In this document: positions 1,556 through 24,844 of the stretch, in pieces
Layout of the letters: the number at the start of each line of letters is the position of its first letter
Position numbering within the stretch: the first letter of the stretch is position 1
Assembly: GCA_019749945.1 (NCBI GenBank)
Contig: JAIEPF010000016.1
Coordinates: forward strand, 93,269-157,268
Length of the DNA: 64,000 nucleotides
From: Burkholderiales bacterium
Lineage (GTDB): Bacteria; Pseudomonadota; Gammaproteobacteria; Burkholderiales; SG8-41
Direction: 5' to 3'
The notes under the pieces: model-generated
Told to the model about the DNA's origin: nothing
Database searches by the model: none
What the model saw: only the letters and a program-made list of their open reading frames with translations
Position numbers and translations under genes: made by a program

Positions 1556-2164
1556 CTAAATCTTGCCGCGCCGCTTCAGGCGGCTCAGTGTTTCCGGCGA
1601 CAGGTTGAGGTATGAAGCGAGTTCCTTTTTCGGCAGACGTTCGGCGAGTTCGGTGTGTTTGCGCATGAAGCGTTGCACCCGTCCCGGCGCATTGAGCAGA
1701 TGCAGGGTGATGGTGTGCGCCATGACTTCGCTCATCAGCTTCATCACTTCAAGCTCGAACTCGGCCTTGATTTTGGCGTGGCGTTCGAGGAAGGCGGCCC
1801 ACTGCAGCATCGACAGCTTGGCGGCGCGGACACGGGTGACCGCGCGGATCGAATACGGCATGGGGGTCTTCAGCCGCCAGGCGGCGTAGCTGGTGTCGAT
1901 GTCGCTTTCCGCGGCAAAACGCAGGATCATTTCCTTGCCGTGGGCATTGGAGACGGTCCGTTTCAGAATGCCGTCGATGATGAAATACTGCTTCATGGCG
2001 TGCGTACCCTGGAGCTCCAGCGTTTCGCCCTTGGCATAGTCGGTAATTTCCAGCAGGGGCTCGAATTCGTTCCATTGCGCCACGCCCAGGCTTTTCAGGA
2101 CCATGTTTTGCCGCAATTGCAGGCGGATGACTTTGGACTGGGGATGCAGTGCAAGCTGGGTCAT
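1556..2164 (-). CDS. Crp/Fnr-family transcriptional regulator
   Basis: N-terminal cNMP-binding-like beta-roll and C-terminal HTH (KKELASYLNLSPETLSRLK) with the FNR-like ETxSR recognition helix. Lies between oxc and frc. Confidence 0.9.
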   Translation of the reverse strand: MTQLALHPQSKVIRLQLRQNMVLKSLGVAQWNEFEPLLEITDYAKGETLELQGTHAMKQYFIIDGILKRTVSNAHGKEMILRFAAESDIDTSYAAWRLKTPMPYSIRAVTRVRAAKLSMLQWAAFLERHAKIKAEFELEVMKLMSEVMAHTITLHLLNAPGRVQRFMRKHTELAERLPKKELASYLNLSPETLSRLKRRGKI

Positions 2165-4619: not shown

Positions 4620-4642
4620 GCCACATCGCCGCGTTCAGGGGC

Positions 4643-4670
4643 AAGGCCACGCTGCGGCGTGGCCTTTTTT
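4643..4670 (+). terminator. Intrinsic terminator after frc-formyltransferase
   Basis: AAGGCCACGC-TGCG-GCGTGGCCTT followed by a T run. Confidence 0.85.
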
Positions 4671-4927
4671 ATTGAAAAACTTAAGTCATTGTTTTTATTG
4701 ATATTTTTATATAACAACGGTCTTAGGGATGAAATCCTGTCCTGCCGTTCTGCGTTTATCGGTGTGCCGTGACCGGCGGTCGGAAGAATGACGATGGCGT
4801 GTGACGTTTGGCACTAAGTCCTTAAAAAAACATAATCCTTAGAGGGGAATATCGTAAAATCTGTGAAACTCCGTCGTTAAGCCATTCAGCGGAAACATAA
4901 AAACAACGCGGAACGGGCGTAAAAGGG

Positions 4928-7495
4928 ATGAAAAAGCTGAGTTTCTGGAAGGCTGACTGGTTTATCGGACTCATTGTCGCCGTGATCATGCTGATCGCTG
5001 CGCGCGGTGACCTGATCCAGAGCCTGGAGCGCAAGGCCTACGACCTTGGTGTCCAGGCCGTCTCCCGCACGCCGTCCGACCGCATTGCCGTGATTGCCAT
5101 CGACGATGCCAGCATCGCCAATATCGGCCGCTGGCCCTGGTCGCGCGACGTCCACGCCCGCATGATTGACCTGCTTGCCGGCGCCAAAGCCAAGGTCATT
5201 GCCAATACCACGTTTTTTTTCGAACCCCAGCGCGATGCGGGGCTGGCGTATGTCGAAAAGCTGCTGAACCTGCACAATGAGCTGACCGCGCAGGGCGCAA
5301 CGGATCCCAAGGCGGCCGCGGTCGCCGACGGTCTGGCGCGGATCGGCGCGGTATTGACCGAAGCGGAGCAGGCGCTCAACACCGATCGCAAACTGGCCAG
5401 CAGCATGAAAACCGCCGGCAATGTGGTGCTGCCGCTGGTGTTCCAGCAGCTGACCGAACCCCAGGGCAATCCGGACAAGCCGCTGCCGGATTACGTGCAG
5501 GCGAGCGGCATGCCCGGCCCGCGCGGCGGGGACGCCTTACCGCCCCCGGGCGTGTTTCCCTTGTACCCGGTCGCCGAGCTGGGACCGGCAATTGCCGGCA
5601 TCGGGCACCTGAACGCCGATATCGACGTCGATGGCGCGGTGCGCGCCGAACCGCTGGTGGTGCGTCATTACGATCGCGTTTTTCCAGCGCTGTCGGTGGT
5701 GGTGGCGGCGCGCAGCCTGAACCTGGGTACGGCCGATATCAAACCGGCCTGGGGCGAGGCGCTGCAGATCGGCAAACTGCGGGTGCGCACGGATGCCGAG
5801 CTGCGCATGCATACCTTTTTTTATGCCGACCGCGACGGCCGCCCGGCATTCCCGGTGGACTCGTTTTTTGACGTGTTGAGCGGCAAGGTGCCGGCGGCCA
5901 AATACCAGGACAAGATCGTGCTGATCGGCGCCACTGCCGCCGGCCTCGGTTCGGCGCAGGTCACGCCGGTGTCACCGGCGACGGCACCGGTGCTGACCCT
6001 GGCGCATACGGTATCGAGCATACTCGGCGAACATTTTTTCGTGACGCCGTCCTGGGGCATCTGGGTGCAGATCGGCGTCTTTTTGCTTGTGGCCTTGTAC
6101 CTGATCCTGGTATTGCCGCGGCTGAAGGCCGGCATTGCGGCGCTGCTCAGCCTGGCGATCGGCGTGGCGCTGCTCGGTGCGCATTTCGGGCTGATGGTGA
6201 CGCAGCTGACCTGGATCCAGCTGATGGCATCGGTGGCCTTGCTGGCCGTGGGTTACGCCGCGCTGACCACCAAACGCTTCCTGGTCACCGAACGCGGCAA
6301 GGAAAAATCCGATGCCGAGTCCGCGGAATCCAACCGCATGCTGGGCATCGCCTACCAGGCCCAGGGCCAGCTTGATCTGGCCTGGGACAAGTTCCGCCAA
6401 TGCCCGCTCGCCGATCCGGTGATGGAAAACCTTTATGCGCTGGCGCTGGATTTCGAGCGCAAGCGGCAGTTCAACAAGGCGGAGTCGGTATTCCAGTACA
6501 TGGCGGAATTCAATCCGAAATTCCGCGATCTGGAGCAGCGGCTGACGCGGGCCAAGGCGCTGTCGGAAACGGTGATCCTCGGCGGCGCGCAAGGACATCC
6601 CGGCGGCACCATGATGCTGGCCGGTGGCGGCATGGAAAAACCGATGCTGGGCCGTTATCAGGTCGAGAAGGAACTCGGCAAGGGTGCGATGGGCGTGGTC
6701 TACCTCGGCAAGGATCCGAAGATCGGCCGCGTGGTGGCGATCAAGACCATGGCCCTGTCGCAGGAGTTCGAAGGCGATGAACTGGTCGAGGTCAAGGAGC
6801 GTTTTTTCCGCGAAGCGGAAACCGCGGGGCGCCTGACGCATCCCTGCATCGTCACCATTTACGATGCCGGCGAAGAACACGATCTGGCGTATATCGCGAT
6901 GGAATTTCTCAAGGGCCGCGATCTGGTGCCCTATACCAAGCCCGATGCGCTGCTGCCGGTGCCGCTGGTGCTGTCGATCATTGCCCGCGTCGCCGAGGCG
7001 CTGGGTTACGCCCACCAGCAGAACGTCGTGCATCGCGACATCAAGCCGGCGAACATCATGTATGAGCCGGAAAGCGATACCGCGAAAGTGACCGACTTCG
7101 GCATTGCCCGGGTCACCGACTCCTCCAAAACCAAGACCGGCATGGTGCTCGGCACGCCGTCCTACATGTCGCCCGAGCAGCTGGCCGGGAAAAAGGTGGA
7201 GGGACGCTCCGACCTGTTTTCGCTGGGTGTCACGCTCTACCAGATGTTGAGCGGCAAGCTGCCCTTCCAGGGCGAGTCCATGGCGCAACTGATGTTCAAG
7301 ATTGCCAACGAAGCACACCCCGACATCCGCACCCTGAAACCGGATCTGCCCGCCTGTGTGGCCGCAGTGACCAACAAGGCACTGGCGAAAGATCCCGACC
7401 AGCGCTACCAGAGCGGTGAACAGATGGCGAAAGCCATCCGGCTGTGCCTGGGCACGCTGGCAGCAAAACCCAAAGCCGACACCGCTGTATCCTGA
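4928..7495 (+). CDS. Membrane CHASE2-domain Hanks-type Ser/Thr protein kinase
   Basis: N-terminal TM, CHASE2 (IDDASIANIGRWPWSR; DVDGAVR; KIVLIGATAAG), 3 TMs, TPR-like segment, then kinase (LGKGAMGVVY, VAIK, HRDIKPAN, DFGIA, GTPSYMSPEQ). Confidence 0.95.
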   Translation: MKKLSFWKADWFIGLIVAVIMLIAARGDLIQSLERKAYDLGVQAVSRTPSDRIAVIAIDDASIANIGRWPWSRDVHARMIDLLAGAKAKVIANTTFFFEPQRDAGLAYVEKLLNLHNELTAQGATDPKAAAVADGLARIGAVLTEAEQALNTDRKLASSMKTAGNVVLPLVFQQLTEPQGNPDKPLPDYVQASGMPGPRGGDALPPPGVFPLYPVAELGPAIAGIGHLNADIDVDGAVRAEPLVVRHYDRVFPALSVVVAARSLNLGTADIKPAWGEALQIGKLRVRTDAELRMHTFFYADRDGRPAFPVDSFFDVLSGKVPAAKYQDKIVLIGATAAGLGSAQVTPVSPATAPVLTLAHTVSSILGEHFFVTPSWGIWVQIGVFLLVALYLILVLPRLKAGIAALLSLAIGVALLGAHFGLMVTQLTWIQLMASVALLAVGYAALTTKRFLVTERGKEKSDAESAESNRMLGIAYQAQGQLDLAWDKFRQCPLADPVMENLYALALDFERKRQFNKAESVFQYMAEFNPKFRDLEQRLTRAKALSETVILGGAQGHPGGTMMLAGGGMEKPMLGRYQVEKELGKGAMGVVYLGKDPKIGRVVAIKTMALSQEFEGDELVEVKERFFREAETAGRLTHPCIVTIYDAGEEHDLAYIAMEFLKGRDLVPYTKPDALLPVPLVLSIIARVAEALGYAHQQNVVHRDIKPANIMYEPESDTAKVTDFGIARVTDSSKTKTGMVLGTPSYMSPEQLAGKKVEGRSDLFSLGVTLYQMLSGKLPFQGESMAQLMFKIANEAHPDIRTLKPDLPACVAAVTNKALAKDPDQRYQSGEQMAKAIRLCLGTLAAKPKADTAVS

Positions 7496-7503
7496 GGCCC
7501 TGA

Positions 7504-8316
7504 ATGAACGATTTGTCCAACGCCATAGAAATCACGACCGCCACCCACCCGGGCATGGTGCGGTCGCATAACGAGGACAGCCTTTCTGCGGATGCTGCGG
7601 CCGGGCTTGCCGTGCTGGCCGACGGCATGGGCGGCTACAATGCCGGCGAGGTGGCCAGCGGCATAGCGGTGGCGATGATCAGCGCCGAACTGAAAAAGGC
7701 GCTGGCCGCAATCAACGGCGAACTCGATACGGCGACCGCGGAACGCCTGGTTGGCGAACATGCGGTGCGCGCCAACAATGCGATTTTCCAGGCCGCGCAG
7801 AACCAGTCGCAGTACGCCGGCATGGGCACCACGCTGGTCGTCGCGCTGTGGCACGACAACTCGCTGGTGGTCGGACATATCGGCGACTCGCGGCTCTACC
7901 GGTTCCGTAACAACAAACTTGAGCAGGTCACGCGCGACCATTCGCTGTTGCAGGAACAGATCGACAGCGGCCTGATCACCAAGGCGCAGGCCCGCCATTC
8001 GCAGAACAAGAATCTGGTGACGCGGGCGGTGGGCATCGACCCGGAAGTCGAGGCCGAAGTCCACAGCTACCCGGTGCAGGCCGGCGATATCTACCTGCTG
8101 TGTTCGGACGGCCTCAACGACATGGTGACGGATGAGGACATGGAGTTGACGCTGGCGTCGCTGCAGGCCAATCTGCCCCTGGCCGCCGCGCAACTGGTGC
8201 AGCAGGCGAACGACAATGGCGGGCGTGACAATGTTTCGGTTATTCTGGTGCGCGTGCTGAAGAGTTTCCCGGCCCGCGCTGGTTTGGTTGACCGGTTGAA
8301 GTCCTGGTTCAGATAA
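7504..8316 (+). CDS. PP2C-family Ser/Thr phosphatase (Stp1/PppA-like)
   Basis: RSHNED, ADGMGG, GMGTT, HIGDSR, TRDHS, LLCSDGL and GGRDN motifs. Confidence 0.95.
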   Translation: MNDLSNAIEITTATHPGMVRSHNEDSLSADAAAGLAVLADGMGGYNAGEVASGIAVAMISAELKKALAAINGELDTATAERLVGEHAVRANNAIFQAAQNQSQYAGMGTTLVVALWHDNSLVVGHIGDSRLYRFRNNKLEQVTRDHSLLQEQIDSGLITKAQARHSQNKNLVTRAVGIDPEVEAEVHSYPVQAGDIYLLCSDGLNDMVTDEDMELTLASLQANLPLAAAQLVQQANDNGGRDNVSVILVRVLKSFPARAGLVDRLKSWFR

Positions 8317-8333
8317 GCAACGGGGATACTACT

Positions 8334-9143
8334 ATGGCGAAGTTGATACTTTCTCTTGAAGGCTCGATGATCCGCGAGGTCCCGCTCGACAAGGAGCGGA
8401 TCATGATCGGGCGCAAGCCTTCCAACGAGATCCAGATCGAGAACCTGGCGGTCAGCGGAGAACACGCATGCATCGTGACCATCCTCAATGATTCGTTTCT
8501 CGAGGACCTGGGCTCGACCAACGGTACCCTGGTCAACGGCAATCCGATCAAAAAACACATCCTGCAGAACAACGATGTGATCGAGATCGGCAAATACAAG
8601 CTGAAATATGTCGCCGAAGCACCGGCGGCGGGCCACGCCGGCGAGGATTTCGAGAAAACCATGATCCTGCGTGCCCCGCCCAAAGCGGCTGCGGCGCCCA
8701 AACCCGCCAATGAGCCCGCGCCGGCGCCGAAGCCCTCGACCCCGCCGCCCACGCCGCGGCCGGTGCCGCCTGCGGCCAAGCCGGCGGCCCCCGCTGCGTC
8801 TCCCGCGGCCGCTGCACCGTCTCCGGCCGCTGTCGCCGCAGCGCCTGCCGTTGCGCCGGCCAAACCCGCCGAAACACAGCCCCTGGCGGCGGTGCAGATC
8901 CTGACCGGGCCCAGCGCGGGCAAGGAGCTCGACCTCGTCAAAAACCTGACGACGCTGGGCAAGCCGGGACTCCAGGTCGCGGTGATCACGCGCCGTCCGC
9001 AGGGTTATTTCATCACCCACGTCGAAGGCGCCAAGTTTCCAGTGATCAACGGCAAGATGATCGACGCCCAGGCGCAGCCCCTGCAGGATCACGACGTGAT
9101 CGAGCTGGCGGGCGTGAAAATGGAATTTTTCATCAAGAAATAA
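8334..9143 (+). CDS. FHA-domain protein (canonical FHA, Pro/Ala linker, second FHA-like domain)
   Basis: IGRKPSN...VSGEHA...DLGSTNGT FHA motif; long PA-rich linker; C-terminal LTTLGK...INGK...LQDHDVIELAG. Confidence 0.93.
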   Translation: MAKLILSLEGSMIREVPLDKERIMIGRKPSNEIQIENLAVSGEHACIVTILNDSFLEDLGSTNGTLVNGNPIKKHILQNNDVIEIGKYKLKYVAEAPAAGHAGEDFEKTMILRAPPKAAAAPKPANEPAPAPKPSTPPPTPRPVPPAAKPAAPAASPAAAAPSPAAVAAAPAVAPAKPAETQPLAAVQILTGPSAGKELDLVKNLTTLGKPGLQVAVITRRPQGYFITHVEGAKFPVINGKMIDAQAQPLQDHDVIELAGVKMEFFIKK

Positions 9144-9268: not shown

Positions 9269-11506
9269 GTGAAAAAACATCTGGCCCGCATAGCGATAGG
9301 CATGGCGATTGTCGCCCTGTTTCTCGCGCATGCAGTTCATGTCCTGCGCGTTCCGCTGCTCGACAATCTTGAGGCCATCGTTTACGACACGCGGCTGCGT
9401 TTGACGATGCCGCGCACCGTCGATCCGCGCGTGGTGATTCTCGACATCGACGAAAAAAGCCTGCAGGAAAAGGAAAAGGGCGGCGAAGGCCGCTGGCCGT
9501 GGCCGCGCGACCGGCTGGCGCTGCTGCTGGACAAGCTGTTCGACAAATACGGCATTGCCGTCGTCGGCTTCGACGTGGTGTTTGCCGAACGCGACGAATC
9601 CTCGGGCATCCGCGTGCTGGAGCGGCTGGGCCAGCGGGAGCTGAAGGCCGTGCCGCAATTCCAGTCCGTGCTCGACCAGGTGCGGCCGCAGCTCGAATAC
9701 GATGACATTTTCGCCCGCAAGATGAAGGGCCGTGCGGTGGTGCTGGGCCATGTGTTCCTCAGTGACGATCCGGCCAACGCCACCAAAAAGGGCATGCTGC
9801 CGCCGCCGGTGCTGCCGGCCGGCGCTTTCGGCGAACGCCGCGTCGGCGTCACCTCGTGGGCCGGTTACACCGCCAACCTGGAGCGGTTGCAGCGCGCCGC
9901 CGCCAGTGCCGGGCATATCAATCCGCTGCCGGATCAGGACGGCATCACCCGGCGTGTACCGATACTGGTGGAACACGCCGGCGCCTATTACGAGCCCTTG
10001 TCGCTGGCGATGGTGCGGGCGGTGCATGACCGGCCTCCCGTGGTGCCGGTGGTGAGCCAGGACGGCATTACTGCCAATTACAGCGGCCTCGAGTGGATCA
10101 AGACCGGGCCTTTCGAAATCCCGGTTGATTTTCAGGCGGCGGCACTGGTGCCGTACCGCGGCAGCAAGGGCAGCTACCGGTATTTCTCGCTGGTGGATGT
10201 GCTGAATGAACGTGTTCCGGTCGAAGAACTGCGCGGCAAGATCGCGCTGATCGGCACCACGGCGCCGGGCCTGCTCGATCTGCGGGCGACGCCGGTGGAC
10301 CCGGTGTATCCCGGGGTGGAGATTCACGCCAACCTGATCAGCGGCATCCTCGACGGCAACATCAAGCAGCGTCCGCCGTATGTGGTCGGCGCCGAATTTG
10401 TGCTGCTGCTGCTGTCCGGCGTGGCGCTGGCGCTGCTGCTGCCGCTGCTGACGCCGTTCAAATCCATGCTGGTGACGGCGCTGGTGCTGGTGACGGTGGT
10501 CGGCGCCAACCTGGTGGTGTTTCATACCGGGCATCTGGTGCTGCCGCTGGCCTCCGGCGTGCTGCTGGTCCTGATCCTGTTCACCTTCAACATGGCGTAC
10601 GGCTTCCTGGTCGAGGCGCGCGGCACGCGGCTGATCACCGGACTGTTCGGCCAGTACGTGCCGCCGGAACTGGTCGAGCAGATGGCGCTGAATCCGGAGC
10701 AGTTCAACATGGCGCCGCGCGCCGAGGAACTCACGGTGCTGTTTTCCGATGTGCGGGGATTTACCACCATCTCGGAAAGCCTGAGCCCGGACGACCTGTC
10801 GGTCTACATCAACGATTACCTGACCACGATGAGTCTGGTGATCCGTGAGGGCCATCGCGGTACGCTGGACAAGTACATCGGCGACGCGGTGATGGCGTTC
10901 TGGGGCGCGCCGATGGCCGACCCCAACCACGCGCAGAACGCCGTGCTGGCCGCGCTCGACATGATGAAGCAGTCGGCGGTGCTCAACAAAAAATTCAGCG
11001 ACAAGGGCTGGCCGCCGTTTGCGATCGGCATCGGCGTCAACTCCGGGGTGATGCGCGTCGGCGACATGGGTTCGCAGATCCGCAAGGCCTATACCGTGAT
11101 GGGCGACGCGGTGAACCTGGGTTCACGCCTGGAGGGCATCACCAAGCAGTACGGCGCCGATATCATCATCGGCGAGGCGACCAAAAAGCGCATCACCGGC
11201 ATCGTGCTGCGCGAAATCGACCTGGTGCAGGTCAAGGGCAAGGACGAGCCGGTGGCGATCTTCGAGCCGCTCGGACTGGAAGGCGAGGTTGAACAAAGCA
11301 AGCTCGACGAGATCAAACTCTGGAACCAGGCGCTGCGGTTCTATCGCGCCCAGGACTGGGACAAGGCGGAATTGCAGTTGATGAATCTCAAGAAGATTTC
11401 AGCAAAACCCTATCTCTACGACGTGTTCCTGGAGCGTATTGCCGGGTACCGCGCCAACCCGCCGGATTCCGCATGGAACGGCGTTCACAAGTTTGATACC
11501 AAGTAA
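9269..11506 (+). CDS. Membrane CHASE2-domain class III adenylate cyclase
   Basis: CHASE2 (DIDEKSL...GRWPWPR), 3 TMs, cyclase motifs LFSDVRGFT, DKYIGDAVM and YTVMGDAVNLGSRLE (Lys/Thr adenine specifiers); C-terminal TPR-like tail. Confidence 0.93.
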   Translation: MKKHLARIAIGMAIVALFLAHAVHVLRVPLLDNLEAIVYDTRLRLTMPRTVDPRVVILDIDEKSLQEKEKGGEGRWPWPRDRLALLLDKLFDKYGIAVVGFDVVFAERDESSGIRVLERLGQRELKAVPQFQSVLDQVRPQLEYDDIFARKMKGRAVVLGHVFLSDDPANATKKGMLPPPVLPAGAFGERRVGVTSWAGYTANLERLQRAAASAGHINPLPDQDGITRRVPILVEHAGAYYEPLSLAMVRAVHDRPPVVPVVSQDGITANYSGLEWIKTGPFEIPVDFQAAALVPYRGSKGSYRYFSLVDVLNERVPVEELRGKIALIGTTAPGLLDLRATPVDPVYPGVEIHANLISGILDGNIKQRPPYVVGAEFVLLLLSGVALALLLPLLTPFKSMLVTALVLVTVVGANLVVFHTGHLVLPLASGVLLVLILFTFNMAYGFLVEARGTRLITGLFGQYVPPELVEQMALNPEQFNMAPRAEELTVLFSDVRGFTTISESLSPDDLSVYINDYLTTMSLVIREGHRGTLDKYIGDAVMAFWGAPMADPNHAQNAVLAALDMMKQSAVLNKKFSDKGWPPFAIGIGVNSGVMRVGDMGSQIRKAYTVMGDAVNLGSRLEGITKQYGADIIIGEATKKRITGIVLREIDLVQVKGKDEPVAIFEPLGLEGEVEQSKLDEIKLWNQALRFYRAQDWDKAELQLMNLKKISAKPYLYDVFLERIAGYRANPPDSAWNGVHKFDTK

Positions 11507-12273
11507 TGAAGTTGCGCATCCTCGGCTGCAGCGGCGGTATCGGTGGCGACCTGCGCACGACTTCGATGCTGCTCGACGATGATGTGCTGATTGATGCCGG
11601 GACCGGCGTCGGCGACCTGTCGCTGCAGCAGCTGGCAAACATTGATCACGTTTTTGTGACACATTCCCATCTCGATCATGTGACCTCGATCCCCTTCCTG
11701 CTCGACACCGTCGGCTGGCAGCGCAGCAAACCGGTGACCCTTTATGCGATCCAGGAGACGCTGGACATTCTCAGCGCGCATCTCTTCAACTGGAAGCTGT
11801 GGCCCGATTTCCGGCAGATTCCGGATCCGCAGTCCCCGCTGCTGCGTTATGCCCCGGTCCGGGTGGGCGAGCCGGTGCGCCTCGCCGGGGGGCGGACCAT
11901 CACGCCGGTGCCGGCGAATCACGTGGTGCCCGCCGTCGGTTATCACCTCGATTCCGGCGCCGCCAGCCTGGTCTTCACCGGGGACACCACCAGCCAGGAC
12001 GAGATCTGGAAATATATCAATAAAATCAATAATTTAAAGTATATCATCATCGAGTCCGCGCTGCCGGACGCGGAGCGGGAGCTGGCGATCATCTCCAAAC
12101 ACCTCTGCCCCGGCCTGCTGGCGGAGGAACTGGCCAAACTGCGCTTGGATCCGGCTATTTATGTGACACACTTCAAACCGCGGGAAACGGAACTTATCAT
12201 GGAGCAGATCGTGGCCCGGATACCCGGGCGACGGCTGCACATGCTTGAACAGAACCAGGTTTTTGAATTCTGA
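11506..12273 (+). CDS. MBL-fold 3',5'-cyclic nucleotide phosphodiesterase (class II-like)
   Basis: LGCSGG, DAGTG, THSHLDH, HLFNWKLWPDF, FTGDT, HLCP and THFK. Overlaps the cyclase stop (TAATG coupling). Confidence 0.85.
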   Translation: MKLRILGCSGGIGGDLRTTSMLLDDDVLIDAGTGVGDLSLQQLANIDHVFVTHSHLDHVTSIPFLLDTVGWQRSKPVTLYAIQETLDILSAHLFNWKLWPDFRQIPDPQSPLLRYAPVRVGEPVRLAGGRTITPVPANHVVPAVGYHLDSGAASLVFTGDTTSQDEIWKYINKINNLKYIIIESALPDAERELAIISKHLCPGLLAEELAKLRLDPAIYVTHFKPRETELIMEQIVARIPGRRLHMLEQNQVFEF

Positions 12274-12337
12274 GTCCGGCGCGGGATTGCAGGGGCCGCG
12301 TCAGTACCGGCAGTAACGGAAACAGAAAGAGGTGATC

Positions 12338-14716
12338 ATGAGCACCGTACTCCAGAGCAAACCGGCGGCCGCAGACAATCTCGCTGAGAAGCTTAATTTC
12401 CAGCAGAAGCTGCAGGCGGTTACCAATAAAATCCATGCGACCAAGAACATCGACGAGATCATTCTCGAGATGTCGCAGGAACTCTGCACCCTGTTCAATG
12501 CCGACCGCCTGACCATCTACCTGCTCAGCGAGGACAAGGGCTCGATCATTTCCAAGGTCAAGACCGGGCTGACCTCGTTCAAGGACATCAAGCTGCCGAT
12601 CAACGAGCAGTCGATTGCCGGCTTCGTCGCCGCCAACAAGCGCATCGTCAACATCCGCGATGTTTATGACGATGCGGAATTGAAGTCCTACAGCGCACAG
12701 CTGAATTTCCTCAAGGCGGTGGATGCCAAGACCGGTTACCGCACCAAGCAGATGCTGGTGGCGCCGGTGATCGAGGCCAAGACCAAGGACCTGATCGGCG
12801 TCGTCCAGATCATCAACAACAAGTCGGGCACGCCGTTTCCACCGATGATGGAAGAAGGGGTGCTGTCGCTGACCGAAACGCTGGCCATTGCCTTCCGCCA
12901 GCGCCAGGGCCCGATGATGCAGGTGCGCAGCAAGTATGACGGACTGGTCACCAACGCGGTGATTTCGGGCGAGGAGCTGGAGCTCGCCCAGCGTTCGGCA
13001 AGGCGCAAGAACCTCGATGTCGAAATCGTGCTGAAGGACGAATTCCAGGTCAAGTTGCCGGCAATTGGAGAGGCGCTCGGCACCTATTTCGGCGTGCCGT
13101 ACGAGCCGTTCAAGCAGGACCGCATCAAGCCGCCCGACCTGATGAAAAACATGAACCGCGAGTTCTGCCAGACCAACCAGTGGGTGCCGCTGGACGACAC
13201 CAAGGACGGCATTGTGGTGATGACCACCGACCCGGAGCGGGTCAAGGCATCGCGCATGGTCAGCAACGTGTTTCCGAAGAGCAAGATCATCTTCCGGGTG
13301 ACCACCAACAGCGAATTCATCAGCACGCTGGACCAGATGTTTGGCGCCGGCAGCGGTCTCGAGGATTCCGGCAACATCGAGGACATGCTCGGCACGATGG
13401 ATGACGAGGCCGAGGGCGAAGGTACCGGCGGTGATGATGTCGCCTCCGCCGCGGCCGACAACGAACTGGTCAAACTCGTCAACAAGATCATCATCGACGC
13501 CTACCAGATGGGCGCGTCCGACATCCACATCGAGCCTTATCCGGGCAAGGCGAAAACCGAAATCCGCTTCCGGCGCGACGGCTCGCTGCAGCCCTACATC
13601 CAGGTTCCGGCGAGTTACCGCAGTGCGCTCGCGGCACGCCTGAAGATCATGTGCGACCTGGACATTTCCGAGCGCCGCCGCCCGCAGGACGGCAAGATCA
13701 AGTTCAAGAAATTCGGTCCGCTGGACATCGAACTGCGGGTGGCGACCATCCCGTCAGCCGGCGGCGTCGAAGACATCGTGATGCGTATTCTGGCCGCCGG
13801 CGAGCCGATTCCGCTCGACAAGCTGGGCCTGACCAAATACAACAATGAAACGCTGAAGGAAGTCGTGTCCAAGCCGTACGGCCTGTTTTTCGTCTGCGGC
13901 CCGACCGGTTCCGGCAAAACAACGACGCTGCACTCGGTGCTCGGCTACCTCAACACTTCCGACACCAAGATCTGGACCGCGGAAGACCCGGTGGAGATCA
14001 CGCAAAAAGGTTTGCGCCAGGTGCAGATGAATCCGAAGGCGGGGATGACCTTTGCGGTGGCGATGAAAGCCTTCCTCCGCGCCGACCCGGACATCATCAT
14101 GGTCGGCGAGATGCGCGACAAGGAAACCACAGGCACCGGCATCGAAGCCTCGCTGACGGGTCACCTGGTGTTCGCCACGCTGCATACCAACAGTGCTCCG
14201 GAATCGATCATCCGCCTGCTCGACATGGGGATGGATCCGTTCAACTTTGCCGATGCTTTGCTCGGCATTCTGGCGCAGCGTCTGGCCAAACGGCTGTGCG
14301 GCAAGTGCAAAAAACCGCACGAGGCGACGCCCGAGGAAATCCAGGCGCTGATGGTCGAGTATGCGATGGAGTTACGGAACACCGCGACCTGGAAAAAGGA
14401 TGCCAAGGCGGCGGAGGCCAAGCTGCTGGAGGACTGGATTGCCAATTACGGCAACGAAAACGGCAAACTGGTGATTCACGACCCGGTCGGCTGTGAGGTC
14501 TGCGGCGGCAGCGGTTACAAGGGGCGGGTCGGTCTGCACGAACTGCTGGTGGGCACCGACGCACTCAAGAAGAACATCCAGGAGCATGCGCGCGTGGCGG
14601 AAATGGTGGCCACCGCGCTGGAGGACGGCATGCGCACCCTGAAGCAGGACGGCATCGAAAAAGTGCTGATGGGCATCACCGACATGAAACAGGTGCGCGC
14701 TGTTTGTATCAAATAG
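12338..14716 (+). CDS. GAF-domain PilB/GspE-family secretion ATPase
   Basis: N-terminal GAF; ASDIHIEP, RRPQDG, Walker A GPTGSGKT, AEDPVE, Walker B DPDIIMVGEMRD, TGHLVFATLH, CxxC...CxxC. AGAGG SD. Confidence 0.94.
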   Translation: MSTVLQSKPAAADNLAEKLNFQQKLQAVTNKIHATKNIDEIILEMSQELCTLFNADRLTIYLLSEDKGSIISKVKTGLTSFKDIKLPINEQSIAGFVAANKRIVNIRDVYDDAELKSYSAQLNFLKAVDAKTGYRTKQMLVAPVIEAKTKDLIGVVQIINNKSGTPFPPMMEEGVLSLTETLAIAFRQRQGPMMQVRSKYDGLVTNAVISGEELELAQRSARRKNLDVEIVLKDEFQVKLPAIGEALGTYFGVPYEPFKQDRIKPPDLMKNMNREFCQTNQWVPLDDTKDGIVVMTTDPERVKASRMVSNVFPKSKIIFRVTTNSEFISTLDQMFGAGSGLEDSGNIEDMLGTMDDEAEGEGTGGDDVASAAADNELVKLVNKIIIDAYQMGASDIHIEPYPGKAKTEIRFRRDGSLQPYIQVPASYRSALAARLKIMCDLDISERRRPQDGKIKFKKFGPLDIELRVATIPSAGGVEDIVMRILAAGEPIPLDKLGLTKYNNETLKEVVSKPYGLFFVCGPTGSGKTTTLHSVLGYLNTSDTKIWTAEDPVEITQKGLRQVQMNPKAGMTFAVAMKAFLRADPDIIMVGEMRDKETTGTGIEASLTGHLVFATLHTNSAPESIIRLLDMGMDPFNFADALLGILAQRLAKRLCGKCKKPHEATPEEIQALMVEYAMELRNTATWKKDAKAAEAKLLEDWIANYGNENGKLVIHDPVGCEVCGGSGYKGRVGLHELLVGTDALKKNIQEHARVAEMVATALEDGMRTLKQDGIEKVLMGITDMKQVRAVCIK

Positions 14717-14741: not shown

Positions 14742-16361
14742 ATGAATCAACCGGAACTCCTGCCGGCGGCGACCGAACTTGACCACCGGCTCGGCGAGCT
14801 GCTGCGCATCGGCGTGGCACTCTCCCGCGAGCGCGACATCAACCGGCTGCTGGAGGCCATCCTGATCGCGGCGAAGGACATCACCAGCGCCGACGGCGGC
14901 ACGCTTTACCGCATGACCGACGAACATGCGCTGCGCTTCGAGATCATGCGCAATGACACGCTGGGCATCGCCATGGGCGGCACCAGCGGCGTCGACATCC
15001 CGTTTTATCCGGTCAACCTGTTCGACAAGGAGGGCAAGGCCATCAACAGCATGGTCGCCACCTATGCCGTGCACCATGACTGCTCGGTCAACGTGGCGGA
15101 TGCCTACACCGAGGCCGGATTCGATTTTTCGGGCACCAAGAATTTCGACAAAAAGACCGGTTACCGCTCCACCTCGTTCCTGACCGTGCCGATGAAAAAT
15201 CACGAGAATGAAATCATCGGCGTGCTGCAGCTGATCAACGCGAAGAACCGTAAAACCGGAGAGGTGGTGCCTTTTTCGCAGAACGACCAGCGGCTCGCGG
15301 AGTCGCTGGCGTCGCAGGCGGCGATCGCGCTGACCAACCGGCTGCTGATCAACCACCTGGAAAGCCTGTTCGAGTCGTTCATCCAGATGATCAATGCCGC
15401 GATCGACGACAAGTCGCCGTACACCGGCGGACATTGCGAGCGGGTGCCGACCCTGACGCTGATGCTGGCCGAGGCGGTCAACAACTGCCAGGTCGGGCCG
15501 CTCAGGGACTTCACGATGAGCGACCGCGACCGTTATGAACTGAAAATCGCCGGTCTGCTGCACGACTGCGGCAAGGTGACGACGCCCGTCCACGTCGTCG
15601 ACAAGGCGACCAAGCTGCAGACGATTTACGACCGCATCGAACTGATCGACACCCGGTTCGAGGTGATCAAGCGCGATGCCCAGCTGGCGCTGCTGACCGG
15701 CAGTGCGTCGGCTTCGGCGACCGAAGCCCTGTTGCGCGACATCGAGCAGGACCGCGAATTCCTGCGCCGGACCAATGTCGGCGGCGAGTCGATGCGTGAT
15801 GAAGATATCGCCCGGGTCAAGGCGATCGCGGCCCGCTACCGCTGGCAGCGACCTGACGGCAGCATCGGGGATTTCCTGGCGGCCGACGAAATCGAGAACC
15901 TGAGCATACGCGCCGGGACGCTGACCGTCGCCGAGCGGCAGGTCATCAACCACCATATCGACGTCACCATACAGATGCTCGAATCCCTGCCCTGGCCGCG
16001 CCACCTGAAGCGGGTGCCCGAATATGCCGGCGGCCACCATGAGCGCATGGACGGCAAGGGTTATCCGCGCGGGCTGACGCGCGAACAGATGTCGGTGCAG
16101 GCGCGCTGCATGGGCATCGCCGATATTTTCGAGGCGCTGACGGCGAAAGACCGGCCCTACAAAAAGGGCAAGACCCTGACCGAGTCACTGACCATACTCG
16201 GCAAGTTCAAGCTCAACGGCCACGTCGATCCGGATCTCTTCGACGTATTCATGTGGGAGAAGGTTTACGAGAAATACGCCAGGGAGTTTCTCGATCCCGA
16301 ACAGATAGACAGCGTTGATGTCACGCGGATCCCGGGTTACCAGCCGCCGCCGGGACGGTAA
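14742..16361 (+). CDS. GAF + HD-GYP phosphodiesterase
   Basis: GAF domain, YTGGHCERV, LHDCGK, HHERMDGKGYP, ADIFEALTAKDRPYK. Confidence 0.92.
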   Translation: MNQPELLPAATELDHRLGELLRIGVALSRERDINRLLEAILIAAKDITSADGGTLYRMTDEHALRFEIMRNDTLGIAMGGTSGVDIPFYPVNLFDKEGKAINSMVATYAVHHDCSVNVADAYTEAGFDFSGTKNFDKKTGYRSTSFLTVPMKNHENEIIGVLQLINAKNRKTGEVVPFSQNDQRLAESLASQAAIALTNRLLINHLESLFESFIQMINAAIDDKSPYTGGHCERVPTLTLMLAEAVNNCQVGPLRDFTMSDRDRYELKIAGLLHDCGKVTTPVHVVDKATKLQTIYDRIELIDTRFEVIKRDAQLALLTGSASASATEALLRDIEQDREFLRRTNVGGESMRDEDIARVKAIAARYRWQRPDGSIGDFLAADEIENLSIRAGTLTVAERQVINHHIDVTIQMLESLPWPRHLKRVPEYAGGHHERMDGKGYPRGLTREQMSVQARCMGIADIFEALTAKDRPYKKGKTLTESLTILGKFKLNGHVDPDLFDVFMWEKVYEKYAREFLDPEQIDSVDVTRIPGYQPPPGR

Positions 16362-16376
16362 GACGCGAGTGCGCGG

Positions 16377-16697
16377 TCAGTCTTTTTTCGAAACCGCCAC
16401 CACCAGCTTTTCGGTCACGGCCTCGATATACCCGGCGTCGTAGCCGCGCTCCTTCATTTCCCAGCGGAAAGTGTTGGCGAGGCGGGCTTTTTTGTAAATG
16501 CCGAGTTTGTGTTCCTTGCGGAACGCAGTGGCTTTTTCGAATAATTCGTCCACCCTGCGCTCCAGGTTTTTGAGCGACAGGCCGGGATTTCCCGGCGTCA
16601 TTTTTCCTTCGGGCGGGCGCAGCTGGCTGACCTCCAGCGCAAGGGCGCAGGCAAATTCATCCACTTGTTTTCCGGAAACGGAGCCAAACAGTCCCAT
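16377..16697 (-). CDS. Small helical hypothetical protein (106 aa)
   Basis: MGLFGSVSGKQVDEFA...LGIYKKARLANTFRWEMKERGYD. AAGGA SD before ATG 16697; protein-like composition. Confidence 0.7.
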   Translation of the reverse strand: MGLFGSVSGKQVDEFACALALEVSQLRPPEGKMTPGNPGLSLKNLERRVDELFEKATAFRKEHKLGIYKKARLANTFRWEMKERGYDAGYIEAVTEKLVVAVSKKD

Positions 16698-16832
16698 GCG
16701 CGTGCATCCTTGTCGGTCGGGCGGCCGGTGAGGCCGTGTACAATGCAAGGATACCAAGCGAATCAAGTCCGGTGTAGCCCCCGGCGGGCAATTCAAGGGC
16801 CGGGTGTGCAAATTCAGACCGGCTGCACAAGC

Positions 16833-18593
16833 ATGCTGAAAAACCTGATGATGCATCTGCTGCGTGCGCCGGCGCGGGCCTTGCGCGCCCGGCGCGATCG
16901 CATGGTGTCGTCGGCGTTGATTCCGGCGATGGCGCAGTTCAATGAGAAAAAATACGGGGATGCGGCCCGGGCCTGCAAGGCGGTGATTGCACAATCACCG
17001 CGCAGCGCCCAGGCCCATCATCTTTGCGGACGCGCGTTGTCCGCGCTGGGCCGGCATGCCGAGGCCATGCAATACCTGCATGCTGCCGTTGCAGCGGATC
17101 CGGATCTGGCGGCGGCCCATGCCGATCTTGCCGATGTGTTGTTCCGGTCCGGCGAACTCGGTGAGGCTGAAGTCAGCAGCCGGCGTGCAGTGGTTTTGCG
17201 CCCTGACGAACTCGAATATCGCCTGCGCCTGGTGGAGATTCTGGAAAATTCGGGCCAGGAAGCGGAGGCGCTCGCCGAATTATCGATTGCGCAGGAGTTT
17301 GCGCCCGGGCGCTTTGATCTGCTGGTCAGGCTGTTCAGAACCCTCAGCCGGCTGGGGATGTACCCGCAAGCCTTGCGCATTGCCGAACGCGCGGTCATCG
17401 AAAACGGCGAAAACGATCAGACCCTGTACCTGCTGGCGGCCGCGCGTTACGGCGTGGCGGATATGCAGGGCGCCGTCGAAGCCTGCCGGAAAATACCGGG
17501 CCACCGCGACGACCGGCCTGAGGTTTATGTGACCCTGGGATCGGCGTTGTTCGCCCTGGGCCGGGTTGATGACGCCAGAGCAGCCTATCAGCGTGCGCTC
17601 GACATGGCGCCGGATTCCGCGGATGCGCTGTTTCACATCGGGCTGATCCAGCTGATGTCGGGCGAATACGGCGAAGGCTGGCGGGGATTCGAGCAGCGCT
17701 TCCGCCGCGAAAAAAACAGGACCATGCGGCCCTGTTCGCCTCCCTGGGACGGCATATCCCTGCAGGGCAGGAGTGCGCTGGTCATGCGCGAACAGGGGCT
17801 GGGTGACGAGATCATGTTTGCGTCCTGTTATCCGCAGTTGATCAGCCAGGCGCGGCGCTGTTTCATCGAATGCGATCCCCGGCTGGCGAAACTGTTTTCC
17901 CGATCGTTCCCGGACGCGCTGATTTATGCGCTGGACGACATCAAAACCGGCGCGCAGACGGATCCGGGCGGCGAAGTGGATGTCCGCATCTATGCCGGCA
18001 GCCTGCCGCGGCACTTCCGCAAGTCACTGGAAGATTTCCCCGTACATGACGGCTACCTCAAGCCTGATCCCTTGCGGACGGCGTATTGGCGCGAACGGCT
18101 GGAATCGCTGGGTCGCGGCCTGAAAGTGGGTGTTTCCTGGCGCGGTGGTACTGTATTTACCCACCAGGAGCGGCGGACGCTGTCGCTGGCGGCACTGTTG
18201 CCGGTGCTGTCCGTGCCGGGCGTGCGCTGGATCAATCTGCAGTACGGCAAGCGTGACCGGGAAATCGCCGGATTACGCCATGCGAGCGGCATAGAAATCG
18301 TTGACTGGCCGGAAGCCATCGACGGTGATTACGATGAAACGGCGGCATTGGTCAGCGCACTCGATCTGGTGATCAGTGTCTGCACCTCGGTCGTCCATCT
18401 GACCGGGGCGCTGGGCCGGCCGGCCTGGGTCATGACGGCGCTGGTGCCGGAGTGGCGTTATGGCTTGCGCGGCCCGACCATGCCCTGGTATCCGCAGGTC
18501 CGGCTGTTCCGGCAGGACAGGCAAGGCGATTGGGATCCGGTGATTTCCGCGATAAGGCGGGAACTGGCACAGAGAGCCGCAGATCACCGTTAG
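16833..18593 (+). CDS. TPR-repeat GT-B glycosyltransferase (paralog 1)
   Basis: TPR array followed by EQGLGDEIMF, VGVSWRGG, NLQYG, DLVISVCTSVVHLTGALG and WRY...PWYP. Start chosen by match to paralog 2 (MLKNL). Confidence 0.85.
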   Translation: MLKNLMMHLLRAPARALRARRDRMVSSALIPAMAQFNEKKYGDAARACKAVIAQSPRSAQAHHLCGRALSALGRHAEAMQYLHAAVAADPDLAAAHADLADVLFRSGELGEAEVSSRRAVVLRPDELEYRLRLVEILENSGQEAEALAELSIAQEFAPGRFDLLVRLFRTLSRLGMYPQALRIAERAVIENGENDQTLYLLAAARYGVADMQGAVEACRKIPGHRDDRPEVYVTLGSALFALGRVDDARAAYQRALDMAPDSADALFHIGLIQLMSGEYGEGWRGFEQRFRREKNRTMRPCSPPWDGISLQGRSALVMREQGLGDEIMFASCYPQLISQARRCFIECDPRLAKLFSRSFPDALIYALDDIKTGAQTDPGGEVDVRIYAGSLPRHFRKSLEDFPVHDGYLKPDPLRTAYWRERLESLGRGLKVGVSWRGGTVFTHQERRTLSLAALLPVLSVPGVRWINLQYGKRDREIAGLRHASGIEIVDWPEAIDGDYDETAALVSALDLVISVCTSVVHLTGALGRPAWVMTALVPEWRYGLRGPTMPWYPQVRLFRQDRQGDWDPVISAIRRELAQRAADHR

Positions 18594-18705
18594 CCGCATC
18601 CCCTGTACTACAGCATGGATTTCGCGCCTGTAGAATACGGGCGCCTGTATTGCCGTCGCCGCCACGTTCAGTTGGCCGGTATTAAAAACAAGGGATTCCA
18701 GACCC

Positions 18706-20469
18706 ATGCTGAAAAACCTGCTGCTCCACCTGCTGCACGCGCCGCTGCGCCTGTTGCGCACCCGGCGCGAGTCCCGGGTGTGGCCGGACCTTGAGTCAGC
18801 AATCGCGGATTTTAATCGGCGGAACTATGCGGAAGTTGTTGCCAAGTGCCGGGCTGCGCTGCTGCGGGAGCCGCGCAGCGCCCAGGCCAATCATTTGTGC
18901 GGCCGGGCGCTGATGGAACTGGAGCGTCATGCCGAGGCGGAAGCTTGCCTCAACGCCGCGGTGGCGGCGGATCCCGCGCTGGCGGAAGCGTACTCCGATC
19001 TTGCACTGGTGATGCTCAAGGCCGGCGATTACCAGGCCGCGGAGAAACATTGCCGGCAGGCGGTGAAAGCGCAGCCGAAGGAGCCGCGTTACAGGCTGCA
19101 TCTGGCGGAAATCCTCGAATCCACGGGACGGGACAACGAGGCTTTGATGGAACTGCTGGTGGCGCAGGAATATGCCCCCGATCAGGTTGATGTGCTGCAG
19201 GAATTGCTGATCAAGCTCGACCAGCTGGGCCAGTACGCTGAAGCCCTGCGTGTGGCTGAACGAGCGCTCGTGGAACTGGGTGAAACTTTCGAGACCTGGT
19301 TTTTTCTGGCCTATGCGCGCTACTCAACCGGTGATTCGCTCGGGGCCGTCGAGGCCAGCGCTCGGGCAATCAGTTTTCGTGCCAACGTACCCGGCATCTA
19401 TGTAACCCGGGGATCCGCGCTGCTGGCCCTGGGAAAAATAGAAGAGGCTGCGGCGTCGTATCAGCGGGCGCTCAGGCTGCAGCCTGATTATCCCGATGCA
19501 CTGTTTCATCTTGGCATGGTGAACCTGATGCGCGGACGGTATCGGGACGGATGGGCCGGATTCGAGTACCGCTTCAAGATCCGGCGCGCCAACAGGCGCT
19601 CCTGTGAGCCGCGCTGGAACGGCACGTCGCTGCGCGAGCGCACCCTGCATGTGATGCGCGAGCAGGGTCTCGGTGACGACATCATGTATTCGTCCTGTTT
19701 CCCGCAACTGATCAAGGACGCAAAACATTGTTATATCGAATGCGAACCGCGCCTTGAGAAGCTGTTCGCACGGTCTTTCCCGGAGGCGACTTTTATCCCG
19801 CTCGTCGATAATGCCACCAAGGAAGCGGTGCTGCAGCGCGACGATATTGACGTCAGGATTTTCAGCGCCAGTGTACCGGGATATCTCAGGAATTCGCTGC
19901 GCGATTTTCCCCGGCATCAGGGGTATCTCCGGGCTGATACGGAGCGGACGAGGTATTGGCGCGAAAAACTGGCGGCGCTGGGGGATGGCCTGAAAGTCGG
20001 CATTTCCTGGCGGGGCGGTACGGTTCATACCAACCGCAAACGGCGCACCCTGTCGCTGGATACATTGCAGCCGTTGCTCGCATTGCCCGGTGTGCACTGG
20101 GTCAATCTGCAGTACGGCGAGCGTGCCGCGGAAATCGCCGGCTGCAGCAAGGCTGCCCACGATATAACCATCACCGATTGGCCCGAGGCCATCGACGGCG
20201 ACTATGACGAAACCGCGGCCCTGGTCAGCGCTCTGGATCTGGTGATCAGTGTTTGTACCTCGGTGATTCACCTCGCCGGGGCGCTGGGACGACCGGTGTG
20301 GGTGATGGTGCCCCGTGCCGCCGAATGGCGTTATGGGCTGGAAGGCGAGACCATGCCCTGGTACCCGACGGCCCGTTTGTTGCGCCAGAGCGAAGCCGGG
20401 TCATGGGAGGCGGTCATCGCAAGGGCCAGAGAGGATTTGGCCCGGCGGTTGAATGCTGCGCTTGAGTGA
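18706..20469 (+). CDS. TPR-repeat GT-B glycosyltransferase (paralog 2)
   Basis: Same architecture and near-identical motifs as 16833-18593, e.g. DWPEAIDGDYDETAALVSALDLVISVCTSV. Confidence 0.87.
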   Translation: MLKNLLLHLLHAPLRLLRTRRESRVWPDLESAIADFNRRNYAEVVAKCRAALLREPRSAQANHLCGRALMELERHAEAEACLNAAVAADPALAEAYSDLALVMLKAGDYQAAEKHCRQAVKAQPKEPRYRLHLAEILESTGRDNEALMELLVAQEYAPDQVDVLQELLIKLDQLGQYAEALRVAERALVELGETFETWFFLAYARYSTGDSLGAVEASARAISFRANVPGIYVTRGSALLALGKIEEAAASYQRALRLQPDYPDALFHLGMVNLMRGRYRDGWAGFEYRFKIRRANRRSCEPRWNGTSLRERTLHVMREQGLGDDIMYSSCFPQLIKDAKHCYIECEPRLEKLFARSFPEATFIPLVDNATKEAVLQRDDIDVRIFSASVPGYLRNSLRDFPRHQGYLRADTERTRYWREKLAALGDGLKVGISWRGGTVHTNRKRRTLSLDTLQPLLALPGVHWVNLQYGERAAEIAGCSKAAHDITITDWPEAIDGDYDETAALVSALDLVISVCTSVIHLAGALGRPVWVMVPRAAEWRYGLEGETMPWYPTARLLRQSEAGSWEAVIARAREDLARRLNAALE

Positions 20470-20742: not shown

Positions 20743-21180
20743 ATGAGAAACCTGCAAAAAGGCTTTACGCTGATCGAACTGATGATCGTCGTGGCGATTA
20801 TCGGTATCTTGGCGGCGATTGCGATTCCGCAGTATCAGGACTACATCACCCGTGCGAAGTGGCAGGACAACATCGCCCGCGTGCAATCCTGGAAAACGGC
20901 TGTCGCCGAGTGCCTGCAGAACAACGGTGGTGTGCCTTCCGAGTGCGACACCTCGGCCGAGGTAAGTTCAGCCACCGGCGCAGCTTTTCCGGGCGTAGGC
21001 GGCAACCTGTCCGCTATCGCATACGGCTTGGTCGGTGGCAATCTCACGATCAGCCTGGCGGGCACACCTTCAGTGAGTAACTGCTCGGTTGATGTTAGCG
21101 CCCAAGTATCGCCGACATCCGTGACCTGGGGTTATACCAACAGCGGTTGCACCAAGTCCAAAACCGGCGTGGGCACCTGA
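20743..21180 (+). CDS. pilA: Type IVa major pilin
   Basis: Class III signal MRNLQKG|[24 protein letters not shown] with E5; four Cys including a C-terminal pair; GGGAG SD; followed by a terminator. Confidence 0.93.
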
Positions 21181-21205: not shown

Positions 21206-21231
21206 AAACCCCGGGAAACCGGGGTTTTTTT
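21206..21231. terminator. Intrinsic (probably bidirectional) terminator after pilin
   Basis: AAACCCCGG-GAAA-CCGGGGTTT plus T run, abutting the stop of the convergent gene. Confidence 0.88.
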
Positions 21232-24729: not shown

Positions 24730-24844
24730 CGCCTGTTGCAATGGGCGCGGGGCCCGGCGGGAATGCAGCGGCAATTGCCTTGCCTGAGTGTCAGCGGGTA
24801 CGATCCCTTGCAGAGTCAACGTAATCCCGAATAGAGGTGGGGCT

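Follow-up and report, generated by a model that had tools for sequence, protein, structure and literature searches.

In a 64,000-nucleotide window from a Burkholderiales bacterium (assembly GCA_019749945.1, contig JAIEPF010000016.1, positions 93,269 to 157,268 of the forward strand), a gene on the plus strand encodes a PilB-class ATPase that carries a GAF domain at its N-terminus. This protein, hereafter the GAF-ATPase, retains the MshEN fold through which related ATPases bind cyclic di-GMP (c-di-GMP), and the residues of the c-di-GMP site are lost. As the best explanation of the whole, we lean modestly toward a GAF domain of the cyclic AMP (cAMP) type that was added to a PilB-class ATPase with lost c-di-GMP residues. 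The nucleotide-contact residues of the GAF domain, the degenerate MshEN motifs, and the conserved signaling genes that surround the ATPase carry this explanation.

Domain organization of the GAF-ATPase

The GAF-ATPase is composed of three Pfam domains: GAF (amino acids 40-187, E 5e-8), MshEN (amino acids 253-340, E 8e-13), and T2SSE (amino acids 375-788, E 2e-113). Its features in the window are as follows:

12332..14716 (+): GAF-MshEN-T2SSE ATPase, a 794-codon open reading frame with 792 amino acids from the ATG at 12338
12449..12892 (+): GAF domain of the phosphodiesterase (PDE)/CyaB cyclic-nucleotide type, amino acids 40-187 (Pfam GAF)
12932..13087 (+): helical half of the MshEN fold, amino acids 201-252, both c-di-GMP motifs degenerate (alignments; Foldseek 5htl)
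13088..13351 (+): alpha/beta half of MshEN (N1-like domain), amino acids 253-340 (Pfam PF05157, E 8e-13)
13454..14695 (+): PilB/GspE-type ATPase core (Pfam T2SSE, E 2e-113; motif positions)

The true start is probably the ATG at 12338 (codon 3) and not the GTG at 12332, because most homologues are 792 amino acids long and align from residue 3. Residue numbers used here are counted from the GTG at 12332. The protein contains the strings ADRLT (amino acids 57-61), DAKTGYRT (131-138), IINNK (160-164), FPPMMEE (169-175), and KYDGLV (201-206). All of the strings quoted in the initial annotation of this gene were recovered at their places within the open reading frame at 12332-14716 (+). An artefactual fusion of the reading frame was considered and dropped; homologues of 790-816 amino acids with the same three domains are found in hundreds of assemblies.

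Amino acids 1-345 were modeled with AlphaFold2 from a 54-row alignment, with a mean predicted local distance difference test score (pLDDT) of 93. The structural matches of the first half of this model are solved GAF domains, with PmGH at the top. The second half resembles c-di-GMP-bound MshE (Foldseek 5htl_B: E 1.4e-6, TM-score (TMt) 0.72, 140 columns).

The catalytic motifs of the ATPase core are intact. These are Walker A (GPTGSGKTT, 523-531), the Asp box (TAEDPVE, 549-555), Walker B (DPDIIMVGEMRD, 585-596), and the His box (TGHLVFATLHTN, 609-620). The tetracysteine motif is also complete and is composed of CGKC (656-659) and CEVC (721-724). The names of the catalytic and tetracysteine motifs are our assignment from knowledge of the PilB/GspE family. 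A distance of 61 residues separates the CxxC pairs (amino acids 656-724, window 14297-14503), and the T2SSE match takes up 414 residues against 365 positions of the profile, so an insertion is likely.

Among the NCBIfam models, PilB (TIGR02538) fits the GAF-ATPase best, at 487 bits against a cut-off of 675. The protein falls under every NCBIfam equivalog cut-off, with GspE at 440 bits against 630 and TfpB at 387 against 850. The best explanation for the gene product is a PilB-class hexameric ATPase of the extension type with a changed regulatory input.

The GAF domain and its predicted ligand

The initial annotation assigned the N-terminal domain to the cyclic-nucleotide GAF domains of PDEs and CyaB, and comparison with proteins of solved structure agrees with this assignment. 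In a phmmer search of PDB sequences, the best match of amino acids 1-211 is the tandem GAF of the cAMP-binding protein CyaB2 (1ykd, E 2e-28), with both CyaB2 GAF domains aligned. PDE2A GAF-B is next (E 8e-12), followed by PDE6, the GAF domain of PmGH (an HD-GYP protein), PDE10, and PDE5.

In the available text on CyaB2 GAF-B, cAMP is contacted by R291 (N1), by T293 (N6/N7), and by D356 and N359 (N3, via water), and I308 is a hydrophobic contact (PMC4411481). Three of these residues are identical in the GAF-ATPase in the HMMER alignment: R291 corresponds to R59, T293 to T61, and D356 to D131. The remaining two are replaced conservatively, I308 by V76 and N359 by T134. PDE2A GAF-B, which binds cyclic GMP (cGMP), has Ile and Ser at the positions of R59 and T61.

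Conservation within the family was counted in an alignment (A2) of the window protein and 53 of the 150 representatives listed, which holds single-stretch hits of at most about 810 amino acids and includes many fragments. R59 is found in 45 of the 54 rows, T61 in 47/54, and D131 in 53/54. Most characterized GAF domains that bind cyclic mononucleotides share an NKFDE motif (N-K-Xn-F-X3-D-E), according to the available text of PMC4411481, and two of its residues are kept in nearly all rows of A2 (N162 in 53/54 and F169 in 51/54). Ten homologues were also derived from genomes, eight of them with only 25-30% identity; all ten keep the Arg, and nine keep the Thr. Judged from these residues, the GAF domain may well read a cyclic mononucleotide, most likely cAMP, and this forms part of the joint explanation toward which we lean.

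Loss of the c-di-GMP site in the MshEN fold

The c-di-GMP site of MshEN is composed of two tandem 24-residue motifs, each starting with RLG and ending with Q, as described in the part of Wang et al. 2016 (PMC5013675) available to us. The full motif is RLGxx(L/V/I)(L/V/I)xxG(L/V/I)(L/V/I)xxxxLxxxLxxQ, and the relaxed version from the methods of that paper was used here. In a MAFFT alignment with the genome's own paralogues, motif I of the GAF-ATPase has a three-residue gap opposite RLG (SKY---DGLV compared with KIRLGDILV and KLRLGELLV). In motif II, NLDV is found opposite the RRLG/IPLG of the paralogues. The positions of the terminal Gln residues are occupied by Ala223 (Ala in 42/53 rows) and Thr251. 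The relaxed motif has no match in the GAF-ATPase and two in the paralogue L003; the paralogue L001 has RLG and Q in both motifs, with the central Gly absent. The loss of the RLG residues, which had been proposed in the initial annotation, is confirmed by these comparisons.

The same loss is found across the family. The relaxed motif is absent upstream of Walker A in all 144 GAF-fused ATPases that were scanned (117 of 120 listed, 11 of 150 listed, and 16 from genomes). A looser match, R-h-G-x-x-h-h, occurs in four of the 144; three of these matches are inside the GAF domain, and the fourth (RLGYLVI in P0229) is just behind it. In place of RLG, the helical segment has a motif of its own that is conserved in the family, (K/P)(Y/F)(D/E)xL(V/I).

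The proposal that c-di-GMP sensing may have been swapped for a GAF domain needs correction. The MshEN fold is still whole in the structural comparison above, and the GAF domain has been added in front of it. The fold is retained, and its c-di-GMP-binding residues are lost. The GAF-less TfpB paralogue L002 of the same genome likewise has no RLG motifs in the alignment or by the relaxed motif.

Signaling genes of the operon

The GAF-ATPase lies in an operon with the following neighbors:

4928..7495 (+): CHASE2 sensor-Ser/Thr protein kinase fusion (Pfam)
7504..8316 (+): PP2C protein phosphatase (Pfam)
8334..9143 (+): FHA-domain (phosphothreonine-binding) protein (Pfam)
9269..11506 (+): CHASE2 membrane sensor-class III adenylate cyclase fusion with a Lys/Thr pair (Pfam; CyaB 3r5g match)
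11506..12273 (+): class-II-like cyclic-nucleotide phosphodiesterase, metallo-beta-lactamase fold, HSHLDH (Pfam PDEase_II; 4ojv match)
14742..16361 (+): GAF-HD-GYP protein, predicted to be a c-di-GMP phosphodiesterase, whose GAF domain is of the cyclic-nucleotide type (Pfam HD_5, HD, GAF)

The gene two positions upstream had been annotated as an adenylate cyclase, and its residues are of the adenylate type. Its best PDB match is CyaB (3r5g, E 4e-30), and the strings FSDVRGFT, TLDKYIGD, and AYTVMGD align to FSDIRGFT, TIDKFVGD, and DYTIIG of 3r5g. At the two positions that we take to specify the substrate in class III cyclases, the protein has a Lys (in TLDKYIGD) and a Thr (in AYTVMGD), the same residues as 3r5g, and the metal-binding Asp residues are present. 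The Cya2 chain 2w01, presumably a guanylate cyclase, has Glu and Gly at these positions in the alignment.

The phosphodiesterase scores 56.9 bits with Pfam PDEase_II (cut-off 23.7). Its best PDB match is 3',5'-cyclic-nucleotide phosphodiesterase 1 (4ojv, E 4.9e-8), with THSHLDHVTS aligned. With the NCBIfam model NF041851 it reaches 42.7 bits, below the cut-off of 400. The HD-GYP protein downstream has HD and HHERMDGKGYP in its translation. Its GAF domain matches the GAF domains of PDE5 (E 1.7e-19) and CyaB2 (E 6.7e-14) and has a Gly at the position of R59 in the GAF-ATPase.

Proteins of this kind are also encoded outside the operon. One of the genome's four class III cyclases is an 873-codon frame (G000:C36:25109-27055, +) with two GAF matches followed by the cyclase domain, similar to CyaB1/2. 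Two cNMP_binding proteins are located elsewhere in the window, at 1556-2164 (-) and 31916-33259 (+), and one of them is fused to a Ser/Thr kinase. Cyclic-nucleotide signaling is therefore extensive in this genome.

Conservation of the family and of the gene order

Eighty related loci were found in assemblies of uncultured Burkholderiales/Betaproteobacteria, with 64-95% identity over the N-terminal 345 residues, and their genes were counted by tblastn at a minimum of 45% identity. The cyclase is upstream in 66 of the 67 loci with at least 3.2 kb of upstream sequence. The kinase, PP2C, and FHA genes are each present in 51/51 loci with at least 7.6 kb upstream. Of the 55 loci that extend 4.1 kb or more downstream, 54 have the HD-GYP gene on that side. 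The gene order around the GAF-ATPase is conserved. A short phosphodiesterase remnant is present at one locus (L072). Some loci (L008, L085, and others) are in metagenome bins titled Bordetella or Streptomycetaceae, and their operon is 64-95% identical to that of Burkholderiales-titled bins; these titles look like database labelling artefacts.

The GAF-MshEN-T2SSE architecture is abundant in databases, and the matches of the GAF-ATPase form 189 clusters at 50% identity (E <= 1e-30). In an even sample of the phylum, a match at E <= 1e-25 is present in 40 of 401 genomes and 17 of 212 genera. For 16 of these 40 genomes, 20 kb around the match was scanned by phmmer, and eight of the 16 were also scanned with Pfam (112 open reading frames). 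These 16 stretches, all outside the close clade, contain an orthologous GAF-HD-GYP gene in seven, the CHASE2 cyclase in two, the phosphodiesterase in two, and kinase-module genes in one (phmmer). One additional stretch has a REC-cyclase (Pfam). For the 13 distant genomes, which belong to other families of the phylum or class, the GAF-HD-GYP ortholog is within the 20-kb stretch in six (E 1e-111 to 1e-115), and a CHASE2 or REC cyclase is present in three.

One closed genome from the same order (L126; G159:C1, 1889-11594) has the phosphodiesterase-GAF-ATPase pair behind a universal stress protein. Further upstream are a bicarbonate transporter (Sbt_1), a P-II-like protein, and a carbonic anhydrase. 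This neighborhood hints at a link of inorganic carbon with cAMP.

Pilin, platform genes, and paralogous ATPases

Two TPR genes follow the operon, and behind them is a pilin gene:

20743..21180 (+): type IV pilin gene located 8.4 kb downstream from the start of the ATPase (prepilin motif scan; open reading frame)

A pilin on the same strand is present within 10.5 kb downstream in 29 of the 40 related loci with at least 8.5 kb of downstream sequence. Among the eight stretches scanned with Pfam outside the close clade, a pilin was found in one (L125). The pilin of the window is flanked by four TPR-repeat proteins (16665-20469, +; 21230-23023, -; and 24788-27250, +). The last of these has a GT41 (O-GlcNAc-transferase-like) domain, and the other three share a C-terminal domain without a Pfam name. 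The TPR proteins may modify the pilin.

The genome (40 contigs, 95.8% complete) has four PilB-size T2SSE genes, three PilT-like genes, and three platform (T2SSF) genes. Two of the platform genes adjoin L001 and L003, the ATPases that bear RLG. The third is in a pilC-pilD-coaE-zapD locus (L094, G000:C36:171000-186000, 4602-8258, -) with no ATPase beside pilC; a CNNM/CorC transporter gene is found there in place of pilB. No platform gene is present within the operon of the window. With all three platform genes placed elsewhere, the GAF-ATPase, as the fourth of these ATPases, has no dedicated platform gene. The remaining paralogue, L002, is TfpB by NCBIfam (900 bits, cut-off 850), has no GAF domain, and stands alone on contig C37. 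The GAF-ATPase was also considered as the ordinary PilB of this genome, and this was dropped since L002 fills that role.

A proposed mechanism

In the scheme proposed here, we infer the ligand, the direction of its effect on the ATPase, and the machine that is driven. A periplasmic or membrane cue would cause the CHASE2 adenylate cyclase of the operon to make cAMP, and the adjacent class-II-like phosphodiesterase would remove it. The added N-terminal GAF domain would bind a cyclic mononucleotide, most likely cAMP. The signal would then pass through the C-terminal helix of the GAF domain to the MshEN/N1 domain, resulting in changed ATPase activity or changed docking to a type IV pilus platform. 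In parallel, the GAF-HD-GYP protein would respond to this pulse of cAMP by lowering c-di-GMP. A phosphothreonine layer would come from the kinase, PP2C, and FHA genes.

A more specific form of this scheme is offered only tentatively. Here, the GAF-ATPase would be a second, signal-gated extension motor of the type IV pilus that shares one PilC platform with the housekeeping TfpB. It would be selected by a cAMP pulse together with a phosphothreonine/FHA switch, and the pulse would activate the GAF-HD-GYP protein, which would lower c-di-GMP. In these bacteria, post-translational control of pilus extension would then fall to cAMP and not to c-di-GMP.

Weighing of alternative explanations

Several observations weigh against cAMP control of a pilus motor by the GAF-ATPase. 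The 80 related loci are kin (64-95% identical), and their counts are not independent. The phosphodiesterase gene is dispensable, given that just 46 of the 67 loci have it at full length while the rest of the operon is kept. Outside the close clade, the cyclase, phosphodiesterase, and HD-GYP genes are all absent within 10 kb in seven of the 16 genomes. The genome has three further class III cyclase genes, four in all, so the neighboring cyclase need not be the sole source of ligand. The recurrent downstream pilin gene is the only link of the GAF-ATPase to a pilus, and among the 16 sampled stretches no GspF/PilC or PilD was found by phmmer and, in the eight scanned with Pfam, no platform gene. 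Biochemical data on members of the GAF-ATPase family were not found in the literature. Further points of this kind concern the GAF domain and are taken up below with the alternatives to which they belong.

The first alternative concerns the machine. The GAF-ATPase could be a signaling ATPase, without a machine of its own, by which the nucleotide state is reported to other pathways. Such a role would fit four PilB-size ATPases set against three platform genes, with TfpB able to serve the pilC-pilD locus, and it would fit the purely regulatory operon around the gene. Myxococcus xanthus PilB has been reported as an exopolysaccharide signaling protein (PMC5544727, in the part available). However, the GAF-ATPase retains every catalytic motif as well as the tetracysteine motif that characterizes extension ATPases, and a pilin is present behind the operon in 29/40 related loci. 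We consider a purely signaling ATPase unlikely.

The second alternative concerns the GAF domain, which could serve as a dimerization or scaffold domain, or as a sensor of another small molecule, with no control of the ATPase by cyclic nucleotides. Cyclic-nucleotide binding is the exception among GAF domains, and GAF domains with other ligands are equal in fold score. The top structural match, PmGH, has no identified ligand in the available text of its description (bioRxiv 10.1101/2021.11.05.467447). The NKFDE motif is incomplete as well. The NKxFxxDE pattern described in the initial annotation stands at N162, K164, F169, and E174, but the position of the Asp is occupied by Met173. Across A2, this position is D in 21 of the 54 rows, A in 10, M in 6, and E in 6, and the full motif is found in some family members. 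Against a mere scaffold, the nucleotide-contact residues are kept in homologues with as little as 25-30% identity, which would not be expected. The recurrent linkage to a cyclase, a phosphodiesterase, and a second protein with a cyclic-nucleotide-type GAF domain also argues against a scaffold or another ligand. A GAF domain without a cyclic-nucleotide role is a doubtful alternative to the cAMP-type GAF domain.

Thirdly, the GAF domain could bind cGMP or both nucleotides, and the module would then be a cGMP circuit. The GAF domains of the cGMP-binding PDE2A, PDE5, and PDE6 are also significant matches. The Arg at the position of R59 is present in the cGMP-specific PDE5 GAF-A (SADRYS in the alignment), and therefore the sequence alone leaves cAMP and cGMP undecided. 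Isolated CyaB2 GAF-B binds cGMP too, and the specificity of CyaB2 required the tandem pair, according to the available text of PMC4411481; a single GAF domain is present here. On the other side, CyaB2 is the strongest match by far, and T61 corresponds to the CyaB2 residue that contacts N6/N7 of the adenine (PMC4411481, in the same part). The operon cyclase also has the Lys and Thr of CyaB 3r5g, in contrast to the Glu and Gly of 2w01. A cGMP circuit is rather improbable.

Lastly, binding of c-di-GMP to the MshEN-fold domain in a non-canonical way, with the ATPase integrating both messengers, is very improbable: the four-helix plus alpha/beta fold is kept, the helical segment has its own conserved motif, and P0229 has RLGYLVI just behind its GAF domain, but both Arg-Leu-Gly triplets and both terminal Gln residues are replaced, none of the 144 members matches the relaxed motif, and, in the available part of PMC5013675, mutation of conserved MshEN residues markedly weakens binding and GspE with such changes no longer binds. 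A cAMP-type GAF domain added to a PilB-class ATPase is the account that we continue to favor by a modest degree.

Comparison with known systems

Vibrio cholerae MshE (PDB 5HTL; PMC5013675) belongs to the same ATPase class and has the MshEN fold between its N-terminus and the core. In the MshE/PilB type, a nucleotide second messenger is read by the N-terminal domain, as is predicted for the GAF-ATPase. Unlike MshE, the GAF-ATPase lacks the two RLG...Q motifs, has an extra GAF domain in front, and has a cyclic mononucleotide as its predicted ligand. GAF is not mentioned in the main text of Wang et al. 2016 (PMC5013675), as far as that text is available.

The tandem GAF domains of Anabaena CyaB2/CyaB1 (1YKD; PMC4411481, in part) are the best sequence match, with the R, T, and D contacts identical and two replaced conservatively. 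In contrast to CyaB2, the GAF-ATPase has a single GAF domain, a pilus/secretion ATPase as its output instead of a cyclase, and a Met in place of the NKFDE Asp.

Tlr0485 of Thermosynechococcus vulcanus (Enomoto et al. 2020, as cited) is described as a cAMP-activated GAF-HD-GYP c-di-GMP phosphodiesterase in the available parts of PMC10124867 and bioRxiv 10.1101/2021.11.05.467447. It has the same architecture as the product of the downstream gene at 14742-16361, and in it cAMP read by a GAF domain alters c-di-GMP signaling. Tlr0485 is a parallel for this neighbor and not for the ATPase, and the likeness drawn here is one of architecture; the HD-GYP GAF domain of the window has the Gly at the position of R59.

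TfpB and PilB share the catalytic core of the GAF-ATPase, and PilB is its best NCBIfam model (487 bits). The GAF-ATPase differs from both in falling below all equivalog cut-offs, and the TfpB of this genome (L002, 900 bits) is without a GAF domain. Leptospira Lcd1 is another protein with a GAF domain, and its output domain is, we assume, a diguanylate cyclase. A structure of the Lcd1 GAF domain bound to cAMP is in the PDB (5W10).

A paper describing a GAF-fused PilB/GspE ATPase, or a functional study of one, was not found in the literature; the supplement of Wang et al. 2016, which was outside this search, may list the fusion. In the parts available, none of PMC12943098, PMC3164672, and PMC7690835 concerns the GAF-fused ATPase architecture.

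Implications for the control of type IV filaments

To our knowledge, where second messengers control the ATPases of pili and type II secretion, the messenger is c-di-GMP. Its action is either direct, by way of the MshEN domain, or mediated by adaptor proteins such as FimX (PMC5595344, in the part available). As far as is known, cAMP acts on pili through transcription factors. A conserved operon that encodes both an enzyme predicted to make cAMP and a GAF domain of the cAMP type suggests direct control of a pilus motor by cAMP. The family has many members and lends itself to simple assays, as it offers soluble domains, well-defined point mutants, and a pilin gene in linkage. If the prediction is true, type IV filaments would have a new regulatory input in the form of a motor ATPase with its own cAMP sensor, and the GAF-ATPase would be a concrete node of crosstalk between cAMP and c-di-GMP.

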